This document shows, piece by piece, positions 56,558 to 58,172 of a DNA stretch of 58,172 bases. Each line of letters opens with the position of its first letter. Position 1 is the first letter of the stretch. Origin of the DNA: a virus (lineage: Duplodnaviria; Caudoviricetes); IMG/VR virus record IMGVR_UViG_3300028610_000686, positions 1 through 58,172 of that record, one strand, 5' to 3'. The notes beneath the pieces were generated by a model, which was not told where the DNA came from, ran no database searches, and saw only the letters and a list, made by a program, of their open reading frames with translations. The translations under genes were made by a program, and so were the position numbers.

Positions 56558-56587
56558 TTGACATATTAAGAACATTATAAATATACT
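56558..56587 (+). promoter_or_regulatory. Promoter of the RHH / pentamer-array / RAMP operon
   Basis: TTGACA-18 nt-TATACT; the ATG follows 6 nt after the -10 box (leaderless-like). Confidence 0.6.
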
Positions 56588-56593
56588 ATAAAC

Positions 56594-56758
56594 ATGAAAA
56601 CAAAAACCATAATGGTCATGGTGACCGAGGATTTTAAAGAAAGGGTTCGAAAAGCTGCCAATCATGACAATAAAAGCTTGAGTGCTTATGTTATCGATTG
56701 CTTGCTTGTTGATCTCAAAAAACGAAAGGTTGAAAATATTAAATCTTTCAGTAAGTGA
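56594..56758 (+). CDS. Ribbon-helix-helix (Arc/CopG-like) regulator, 54 aa, below the ORF-track cutoff
   Basis: MKTKTIMVMVTEDFKERVRKAANHDNKSLSAYVIDCLLVDLKKRKVENIKSFSK. Confidence 0.7.
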   Translation: MKTKTIMVMVTEDFKERVRKAANHDNKSLSAYVIDCLLVDLKKRKVENIKSFSK

Positions 56759-56763
56759 AAACC

Positions 56764-56863
56764 GGCCAGGCAAGACGAGACATGGCGGGTCAAGGTGCGA
56801 CTTGGTCAGACTGAACCGGACAGGACAACGCACGATTCGACGAGTCAATTCAAGGCAAGATTT
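56764..56863 (+). ncRNA. Pentamer-periodic array 1 (17 x GDY-NN plus conserved tail), candidate guide RNA
   Basis: ggcca ggcaa gacga gacat ggcgg gtcaa ggtgc gactt ggtca gactg aaccg gacag gacaa cgcac gattc gacga gtcaa | ttcaaggcaagattt. Confidence 0.8.
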
Positions 56864-56886
56864 TTTAAACAATCAGGAGAAAAAAC

Positions 56887-57378
56887 ATGGATCAATCATT
56901 ATTTGAATTAAACGTTGATACACAAATCCTTTTTGATCGGCTTTCGACAATGAAAAAAGGTGATTTCATAGCTTACGAAACTTTGACTGATCTGATCAAA
57001 AAGAACGTTCAGATAGAAGGATATCGATATCTTTATACAGCCAGAAATATGATGCGCAAAATGCACGGCATTGTAATCGATGTAATCGAAAACGAAGGCT
57101 TAAGAGCTTTAACCGATGAAGAAAACATTGCATTGACCGGCAAAAGAGCTTTGAAAGGAATCCGTAACAAAGCGAAACTAGCAGCCTCGAAAATCACAAA
57201 GATTGATGATTTCAGCAAATTGAGCGATGAATCAAAAATCAAACACAATGCCCACCTTGGAATTTTCCAAATATTCATTGCAAACACCAGCAAGAAAAGG
57301 ATTGAAAAAGTTGAGAACAAGGTGGCTGAAACTGGTGAAAAATTGCCGATGAATGGTATTTTGGAATTGTTTAAGTGA
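56887..57378 (+). CDS. Unknown protein between pentamer arrays 1 and 2
   Basis: AGGAG RBS; 163 aa; array 2 starts 9 nt after the stop. Confidence 0.75.
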   Translation: MDQSLFELNVDTQILFDRLSTMKKGDFIAYETLTDLIKKNVQIEGYRYLYTARNMMRKMHGIVIDVIENEGLRALTDEENIALTGKRALKGIRNKAKLAASKITKIDDFSKLSDESKIKHNAHLGIFQIFIANTSKKRIEKVENKVAETGEKLPMNGILELFK

Positions 57379-57386
57379 TTATCCAG

Positions 57387-57455
57387 GGTGAGGCGTGGTT
57401 AGACAAGTCGTGATGAGTTGAGACAAGACGCGACAATTCAAGACAAGGATTAAAA
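57387..57455 (+). ncRNA. Pentamer-periodic array 2 (10 x GDY-NN plus conserved tail)
   Basis: ggtga ggcgt ggtta gacaa gtcgt gatga gttga gacaa gacgc gacaa | ttcaagacaaggattaaaa. Confidence 0.8.
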
Positions 57456-57482
57456 TGGGGGAAACTTATGATTTAAAAACAA

Positions 57483-57556
57483 GACGTGACCAGACCTGGA
57501 GAGACGCGGCATGATGGGATGCGGCAAGACGGGACAATTCAAGGCAAGGATTAAAA
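57483..57556 (+). ncRNA. Pentamer-periodic array 3 (11 x GRY-NN plus conserved tail)
   Basis: gacgt gacca gacct ggaga gacgc ggcat gatgg gatgc ggcaa gacgg gacaa | ttcaaggcaaggattaaaa. Confidence 0.8.
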
Positions 57557-57591
57557 CAAAACAATTCAAAACATTAAAATCAGGGGATTTT

Positions 57592-58152
57592 ATGAAAGTA
57601 GCAACAGTACAACTAAAAAGCATGGCTTCGTATTCACAGGGTCGATACCATGATACCGAAAAACTTAACAAAGAAAGCCACGCAGATTATGAAGAAAGAA
57701 CATGGAGAAACAAACTGCACGTAAACAAAGACGGATTTGTATTCATTCCGGCGATGGCTTTTAAAAATTGCATTTCGGAGTGTGCAAAATATCTGAGTAT
57801 TCAGATACCAGGAAAAGGGAAAGCGACGTATACAAAACATTTTGACGCCGGTGTTATTGTCAGTGATGCTTTAGTTCTGGATACCAAGGCGGAAGATGTT
57901 GAATGTGAAAGACTATTCATCCCGAATCCGGGGACAACCTCAAGAGTTAAAAAATCGTTTCCAATTATTCATGAATGGAGTGGCGAAGTTAAGTTTTTCA
58001 TTCTTGACGAAACGATAACAGAAAAAGTTTTTACTGACCACTTAAAGCAAGCCGGTCAGTTTATTGGAATCGGAAGATGGCGCCCGAGAAATCGTGGATT
58101 ATACGGACGTTTTACCGTTGAAAGTGTTGATTTTGCACCTTATGAAATTTGA
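57592..58152 (+). CDS. Stand-alone RAMP/Cas7(Csm3)-like protein, 186 aa (Vipr-like candidate)
   Basis: N-terminal strand VQLKSMAS, VFIPAMAFKNCI (compare IPGSSxKG in RAMPs), C-terminal Gly-rich loop AGQFIGIGRWRPRNRGLYGRFTV. Start reassigned to the ATG after GGGG because the longer ORF runs through array 3. Confidence 0.7.
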   Translation: MKVATVQLKSMASYSQGRYHDTEKLNKESHADYEERTWRNKLHVNKDGFVFIPAMAFKNCISECAKYLSIQIPGKGKATYTKHFDAGVIVSDALVLDTKAEDVECERLFIPNPGTTSRVKKSFPIIHEWSGEVKFFILDETITEKVFTDHLKQAGQFIGIGRWRPRNRGLYGRFTVESVDFAPYEI

Positions 58153-58172
58153 TGTGGGGTTGATAGGCAGGT

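Follow-up and report, generated by a model that had tools for sequence, protein, structure and literature searches.

The short sequence that closes each of three pentanucleotide repeat arrays at the right end of the viral contig IMGVR_UViG_3300028610_000686 is most likely the constant 3′ end shared by three vrRNAs, the guide RNAs of a VIPR system, in an uncultured phage. The whole contig, a linear stretch of 58,172 bases with an estimated completeness of 81%, was analysed and is called the window below. VIPR is a CRISPR-like form of RNA-guided DNA silencing first described in preprints of 2026 (10.64898/2026.04.26.720920). As far as the text of that preprint describes it, the protein Vipr is a phage-encoded RAMP of ~20 kDa, and a vrRNA consists of 9–16 pentamers in which a fixed GGY trinucleotide alternates with a hypervariable dinucleotide (NN), each vrRNA being closed by an “invariable 3′ extension”, the tail. 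The dinucleotides pair with double-stranded DNA, and every third base of the target is skipped (10.64898/2026.04.26.720920). The direct support for our assignment comes from the RAMP fold of the neighbouring protein, its homology to Vipr, the layout of the repeats, the constancy of the tail against the divergence of the guides, and an ending with fixed AA dinucleotides that recurs throughout the family.

The three arrays lie on the plus strand and follow the layout NN-G-[A/G]-[C/T] with strict 5-nt periodicity. When both strands were scanned along the whole window for phased G.[C/T] runs, nothing but these three arrays was returned. Array 1 spans positions 56762–56861 and comprises 20 pentamers, array 2 spans 57385–57449 with 13 pentamers, and array 3 spans 57481–57550 with 14 pentamers. 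All three tails remain in pentamer phase and share the block xxGAC GNG(A/T)C AATTC AAGRC AAG(G)A, followed by runs of T or A. Tail 1 reads GAGTC AATTC AAGGC AAGAT TTTTT from position 56842, tail 2 reads GCGAC AATTC AAGAC AAGGA TTAAA from 57430, and tail 3 reads GGGAC AATTC AAGGC AAGGA TTAAA from 57531. By alignment, the conserved block is GACGNGWC AATTC AAGRC AAG(G)ATT, with a length of ~25 nt. Each array is divided here into a guide tract and a tail. The guide tract of vrRNA1 (56762–56846) holds 17 pentamers of the NN-G-[A/G]-[C/T] type and is followed by the tail AATTC AAGGC AAGAT TTTTT at 56847–56866, the conserved block starting at 56839. For vrRNA2, a guide tract of 10 pentamers (57385–57434) precedes the tail AATTC AAGAC AAGGA TTAAAAT at 57435–57456 (block from 57427), and for vrRNA3, 11 pentamers (57481–57535) precede the tail AATTC AAGGC AAGGA TTAAAAC at 57536–57557 (block from 57528).

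The initial annotation of this region had proposed that a common tail of about 20 nt, held in the 5-nt phase, closes all three arrays. This is borne out by a 14-nt core, CAATTCAAGRCAAG, which occurs exactly three times in the window and solely at the array ends (56846, 57434 and 57535). When up to two mismatches are allowed, the core has six matches, compared to a mean of 1.56 in shuffled sequence, and none of 100 shuffles reached six. The sequence agrees with that annotation, in which 56844 corresponds to the GTC of tail 1, although the conserved block begins one pentamer earlier. Comparing the arrays in pairs, we observed that the variable dinucleotides are identical at 2/18, 4/18 and 8/18 positions, which is the chance level, while the 20-nt tails are identical at 15/20, 16/20 and 18/20 positions. 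In the 20 nt past the tail, identity falls to 5/20, 9/20 and 9/20. Neither a match in Rfam at the gathering score nor a tRNA nor a tandem repeat with a CRISPR-like period was found in the window.

The gene downstream of array 3, vipr (57592–58152, plus strand), encodes a Cas7-like RAMP of 186 amino acids, as assigned with AlphaFold 2, Foldseek, tblastn and PHROG. The protein belongs to phrog_4652, a PHROG of unknown function, and has no Pfam match. Its AlphaFold 2 model, built on an alignment of 40 homologs, reaches a predicted local distance difference test score (pLDDT) of 96.1. The best PDB matches in Foldseek are Cas7-family RAMPs, namely type VII Cas7, Csm3 and Cmr4, with E-values of 1e-8 to 1e-5 and template modelling scores of ~0.56, which agrees with the earlier designation of this neighbour as a RAMP. 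A G-loop of the form GxGxxRPxNxGxxGRF is conserved in the protein and its homologs. Among GenBank phages, tblastn retrieved the 195-aa gene of Escherichia phage phiSUSP1 (hereafter SUSP1; ALH47069.1), the model system of the preprint. The two proteins share 40% identity over 62 residues of the G-loop region (pairwise E 1e-12, database E 1e-5), the BLAST alignment being limited to these residues in the C-terminal third. In the SUSP1 locus, the 195-aa gene is preceded by one NNGGT array and followed by three, matching the publication.

In the window, a small RAMP fold of 186 amino acids with a glycine-rich loop thus stands outside any CRISPR-cas context and is homologous to a described Vipr. It is accompanied on its own strand by arrays of 13–20 pentamers with a fixed trinucleotide and hypervariable NN, and an invariable 3′ tail follows the repeats. 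We conclude that the locus is a VIPR system, in which the RAMP protein, pentamer arrays and tail of the initial annotation are Vipr, the vrRNA repeat tracts and the vrRNA tails.

Within the Vipr family, the residue that follows G-x-G in the G-loop (window residues 159–174) co-varies with the neighbouring fixed trinucleotide, in a comparison that ignores phylogeny and uses an alignment of window positions 57592–58149 with 39 loci. In this alignment, GGC-type proteins carry GxGRFRP in 11/11 cases and GTT-type proteins carry GLL in 3/3. Among GAC-type proteins, S, V, Y or F replaces R in 7/8, the exception being the window protein, whose repeats are mixed G[A/G][C/T]. In the structural preprint, as far as its text goes, SUSP1 D177, which aligns with the co-varying residue, hydrogen-bonds the first G (10.64898/2026.04.26.720927).

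The window protein retrieves 74 viral loci at 38–64% identity, and a further 13 loci in metagenome-assembled genomes (MAGs) of bacteria and archaea from many phyla. A motif-agnostic array caller made 286 calls in the 74 viral loci and none in 534,579 shuffled bases. On the other 56 kb of the window it made a single call, an A-rich coding repeat. At least one array is present in 72/74 loci; the two misses are L022 and L006, and degenerate arrays are visible by eye in L006. An array starts at most 150 nt past the vipr stop in 52/71 loci. The fixed trinucleotide varies by lineage and includes GGC, CGC, CAC, GAC, GTT, CTC, GTC, AGT, ATT and AAC. In nearly all of these lineages the last two or three repeats have AA as their dinucleotide and the final fixed triplet is altered, as in AAGGC AAGGC AAGGT|TTT, AACGC AACGC AACGT|TTCTTTTGGC, AACAC AACAC AACAT|CCAATTTCC and AAGTT AAGTT|AAGGA.

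Across 228 unique arrays from 63 loci, the dinucleotide is AA in 132 last repeats (58%), 114 second-last repeats (50%) and 60 third-last repeats (26%). Elsewhere in the arrays, AA occurs in 235/2817 interior repeats (8%) and in 19/228 first repeats. These figures are probably underestimates, as the automatic end-calling mis-registers some arrays. At 49/63 loci, at least one array has AA in two or more of its last three repeats. The AA ending holds for GGC, CGC, CAC, GAC, GTT and ATT arrays, is weaker for GTC, and gives way more often to GA in CTC arrays. The closest relative, L006 (64% protein identity), has the array endings AATGC AAGAC AAGGC AATATTAAC, AAGAC AGGTC AAGGA ACCATTAATC and GAGTC AAGGC AAGAA AACC. 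Judged from these alignments, the window ending AA-TTC, AA-GRC, AA-GGA is the local version of the family-wide ending. The AATTC pentamer is peculiar to the window or, in the form AATGC, to one array of L006. Conservation of the tail at homologous loci, which the initial annotation had made part of the test of its proposal, is one of kind; the exact tail was not found elsewhere.

The Vipr homologs in MAGs (L083–L095) carry the labels Dehalococcoidales, Cytophagia, Sedimentisphaerales, Korobacteraceae, Polyangiales, Coriobacteriia, Microcoleus, Alphaproteobacteria and Nanoarchaeia; the MAG locus L083 is identical to the viral locus L006 across the stretches compared. Long back-to-back runs of vrRNA units with differing spacers are seen in L058 (5124–6638), L005 (5076–5942) and L063 (4021–4491). 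Each unit of L058 has its own TATAAT-like box, hairpin and T-run, the units of L005 are separated by AAGGTTTTAC only, and those of L063 by TTCTTTTGGCRATTTATC. These differing spacers suggest different ways of making RNA ends.

According to the preprints, one SUSP1 Vipr protomer sits on each pentamer and the protomers coat the repeat tract; the fixed trinucleotide is gripped by the G-loop, the thumb and helix 1, and the dinucleotide is exposed. A 3′ pseudoknot caps the RNA in the cryo-electron microscopy maps, the subunits at the 3′ end are always ordered, and further protomers and the R-loop resolve in the 3′-to-5′ direction; the P. fulva complex is described without such a pseudoknot marker (10.64898/2026.04.26.720927). 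A further preprint treats a consensus tail as the feature that renders a vrRNA “competent for Vipr complex formation” (10.64898/2026.10.15.759431). On this background, we postulate that the last three repeats of each window array (AA-TTC, AA-GRC and AA-GGA), together with the A/U-rich run, form a fixed 3′ handle that does not serve as guide. Terminal Vipr protomers would bind this handle, which would fix the register of the Vipr filament and define its 3′ boundary. The handle may likewise be the point at which the RNA is cleaved out of the operon transcript or ends within it. In SUSP1 it is from the 3′ end that protomers are ordered and the DNA is unwound, so the tail may additionally be the anchoring end for target engagement. 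More speculatively, the AA repeats could be where the filament nucleates or is anchored. Were the AA repeats to pair with DNA, targets would need an A/T-rich AAnAAnAA flank, a requirement resembling a protospacer-adjacent motif that is absent from the SUSP1 and P. fulva systems.

The window tail resembles that of the SUSP1 type II VIPR system in being an invariant sequence directly 3′ of the pentamer tract, present at every array of the locus and on the strand of the small homologous RAMP gene vipr. The SUSP1 tail, however, is ~40 nt long and folds into a hairpin and pseudoknot, whereas the window tail measures ~20–25 nt, differs in sequence, has no significant predicted fold, and keeps the 5-nt register with AA-fixed repeats. 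It probably acts as an extended, protein-bound sequence, unlike the folded SUSP1 cap. The fixed trinucleotide also differs, G[A/G][C/T] in the window compared to GGY in SUSP1. A survey with a genomic language model reports GAC/NN, CAC/NN, WGT/NN and TGH/NN arrays beside Vipr-like folds (10.64898/2026.10.21.760802). The window and its relatives, in which GAC, CAC, CGC, GTT and CTC occur, share such non-GGY triplets; unlike the arrays described in the survey text, the window mixes GAC, GGC, GTC, GAT and GGT within one array. The main text of the survey makes no mention that we found of tails or last repeats (10.64898/2026.10.21.760802).

The initial annotation had likened the tail to a crRNA handle, a comparison that agrees with the preprints' account of vrRNA tails and carries over here by analogy. 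In class 1 CRISPR-Cas systems, the crRNA has a repeat-derived 5′ handle and a 3′ hairpin, bound by Cas5 and Cas6. Like these handles, the window tail would be an invariant, RAMP-bound flank beside a variable guide that defines an end of a Cas7-type filament. Unlike them, it lies 3′ of the guide and is composed of the guide's own repeat unit. The window locus has no CRISPR repeats, Cas6 or Cas5, and its noncontiguous guide uses 2 nt of each pentamer.

Several observations weigh against reading the tail as a vrRNA 3′ end. The fixed trinucleotide of the window is G-[A/G]-[C/T], mostly GAC and GGC, and not the canonical GGY. This does not exclude membership of VIPR, as the preprints, so far as their text covers the point, allow “a related consensus” and GAC/NN arrays have been reported. 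The folded tails reach -0.6 to -2.3 kcal/mol, with z-scores of -0.06 to -0.81, and show no significant structure; the whole arrays, at z-scores of -0.35 to +0.73, show nothing beyond shuffled sequence. A tail hairpin pairing AAUUC with GGAUU is predicted but is no better than in shuffles, and was dropped as a defining feature. Since the window tail lacks a significant predicted fold, the pseudoknotted SUSP1 tail, the sole tail with a structurally documented role, is not a close model for it. A search of viral contigs with the exact window tail as a 19-mer gave two matches, both in unrelated coding sequence without arrays. Just 106/228 arrays carry AA in two or all three of the final repeats. 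When the arrays within a locus are compared, the 15 nt past the last repeat reach a mean best identity of 0.57, while 5′ junctions reach 0.53 and interiors 0.68. Judged by this poorly discriminating measure, the flank is not generally conserved, and the conserved tail would consist mainly of the terminal repeats themselves. Among sequencing runs, the locus was found in one DNA run, possibly its source, and in no RNA run.

The same holds for targets. Large collections were scanned for the exact pattern only, and these scans yielded no convincing target that would delimit guide from tail. The exact 1-nt-skip pattern of the vr3 guide has no match in viral or metagenome contigs, and that of vr2 has none in viral contigs. 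In metagenome contigs, the sole exact 1-nt-skip match to the 10 dinucleotides of vr2 lies at 807–835 of a 2-kb high-GC contig (L082). It is in frame within a 235-aa open reading frame (ORF), which we take to be acetyltransferase-like, and the skipped base falls at the wobble position. The match stops at the start of the tail, leaving the AA positions of the tail unmatched. By our own estimate, a pattern that fixes 20 bases could plausibly match about once by chance in this collection, whose size is not stated, and we do not take this contig as a vr2 target. A nine-dinucleotide seed of vr1 is found in two related contigs, with 23/40 matches overall, no extension and the skip off the wobble position; these were treated as chance.

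Three other explanations of the tail were weighed. It is unlikely that the tail is chiefly a signal for 3′-end formation, in which the U-run after AAG(G/A) ends transcription or directs cleavage, the protein-bound repeats taking the place of a terminator hairpin. T6 follows tail 1, and many relatives end in AAGGT-TTTTAC, AAGCC-TTTTTT, AAGAT-TTTTTT or AACGT-TTCTTTT, as this explanation would have it. Tails 2 and 3, however, run into TTAAAA and have no U-run, and transcription of the downstream genes would require read-through. No terminator-like site or hairpin was called on the plus strand between the promoter-like site upstream of the cassette and the end of the window, and two relatives, L058 and L066, have ordinary hairpin terminators past the tail. 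We consider it quite improbable that the tail is instead the mRNA leader of the downstream gene, with the Shine-Dalgarno-like AAGGA and the A/T tract tuning translation of vipr and of ORF163, the gene between arrays 1 and 2, perhaps under control of array-bound Vipr. As annotated initially, each tail is indeed followed by an A/T tract, a Shine-Dalgarno sequence and an ATG, the latter two within 25–40 nt: AGGAG and the ATG at 56887 past tail 1, GGGGGA and the mini-ORF ATG ATT TAA at 57468–57476 (plus strand) past tail 2, and GGGGA and the ATG at 57592 past tail 3. In 42/72 loci an array likewise ends no more than 120 nt ahead of vipr (median distance to its start, 24 nt), and the probable co-transcription of arrays and genes described below points the same way. 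Yet tail 2 precedes only a two-codon ORF and the next array, and tails separate back-to-back arrays without a following gene in L005, L029 and L063 as well. The CGC and CAC clades end in AACGT and AACAT, which are not Shine-Dalgarno-like, and the published systems, as far as described, give discrete RNAs of ~100 nt that co-purify with Vipr (10.64898/2026.04.26.720920). A search for self-targets under the 1-nt skip rule in the window and the homologous loci found none above shuffled guides or other skip lengths. The suggestion of the initial annotation that the arrays let the RAMP protein regulate its own operon thus draws on their position and gained nothing from this search.

Very improbable, in our view, is that the likeness of the tails reflects recent tandem duplication of arrays, that is, shared ancestry without a functional handle. 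vrRNA2 and vrRNA3 are adjacent and form the most similar pair (tail 18/20, fixed positions 20/27, NN 8/18), and the leader past tail 2 resembles the leader before vipr. Such a resemblance would follow if array 3 had been duplicated along with its downstream leader to give array 2, so that no function need be sought for the mini-ORF, a probable duplication scar of a gene leader. Leaders similar to that of the window vipr (CATTAA...GGGG) are also found in L006, L017 and L015. Against duplication as the whole account, the dinucleotides of vr1 have diverged to the chance level from those of the other two arrays (2/18 and 4/18), while its tail still matches theirs at 15–16/20 positions. Moreover, AA-fixed endings recur in 49/63 loci across clades with different fixed triplets, and duplication within one genome cannot give such a family-wide ending. 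Duplication accounts for the likeness of vrRNA2 and vrRNA3 and for the mini-ORF scar; it does not account for the contrast between guide and tail or for the ending shared by the family. TRAP-like arrays of GAG/UAG triplets, CsrA GGA sites, iterons or centromere repeats, and assembly origins resembling that of tobacco mosaic virus were also considered and dropped. The interpretation of the tail as the 3′ end of vrRNAs is retained.

The remaining features of the cassette are all on the plus strand. A promoter-like site, TTGACA-18-TATACT (56558–56587, 11/12 consensus match), is the sole strong candidate upstream of the cassette. The first cassette gene (56594–56758) encodes a ribbon-helix-helix-like protein of 54 amino acids, with a weak NikA-like match (E 1.7e-4) under the Pfam cut-off and an Arc-like repressor PHROG at E 0.008. 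A 170-nt contig from the same DNA run shares 36 nt of the start of this ORF and has a different promoter-like sequence before it, so that a related phage may have been present in that sample. As no promoter or terminator was found between the arrays and the genes, the three arrays are probably co-transcribed with ORF163 and vipr in one operon transcript, judging by sequence signals.

ORF163 (56887–57378, 163 aa) is a candidate accessory gene of the vap type. Its homologs adjoin vipr in 24 loci by local tblastn, and its AlphaFold 2 model (pLDDT 92.5) combines an N-terminus resembling a winged helix with long helices at the C-terminus, and gives only weak fold matches to winged helix-turn-helix regulators. 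ORF163 has no match in Pfam or PHROG and no similarity to vap1 of SUSP1, so that the accessory genes of the two systems differ. With ORF163 as query in viral contigs, 15 pattern matches were returned and none was confirmed. It is likely the accessory (vap) gene of this Vipr clade. Between array 3 and vipr, the degenerate tail copy that the initial annotation had placed near 57561 was found at 57561–57580 (ACAATTCAAAACATTAAAAT). It is partial and out of phase with array 3, with an AATTC-to-AATTC offset of 27, and runs into the vipr leader (CATTAAAATCAGGGG). Past vipr, a possible fourth array starts (..TAGGC AGGT, 58153–58172) and is cut by the contig end; a contig of the DNA run also stops within it, at 58163. 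The DNA run that carries the locus, read as contigs, shows no variants.

The 2026 VIPR preprints already describe this type of element together with its partner protein and probable role, and the window locus adds a new example. In the main text of these preprints we found no mention of a short, unstructured, in-register tail or of the AA rule, both of which the supplementary figures on types and architectures may cover. In VIPR, a minimal system for RNA-guided DNA binding that has been described only recently, the delimiting, loading and maturation of the guide RNA are documented solely for the pseudoknot tail of SUSP1. The window and its 74 relatives point to a second solution, a short unstructured tail derived from the repeat unit with AA fixed. 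A bolder reading, which we hold to be less likely than not, is that the 3′ tails of a large Vipr clade are not folded caps but a common “end code” of two or three AA-fixed, in-register repeats with an altered last triplet, kept across lineages in which the trinucleotide has changed (GGC, GAC, CGC, CAC, GTT and others). If the second solution is confirmed, vrRNA 3′ ends could be called in metagenomes by a simple rule, engineered guides could be given a minimal handle, and the role of the 3′ end as the seed of target recognition could be tested.

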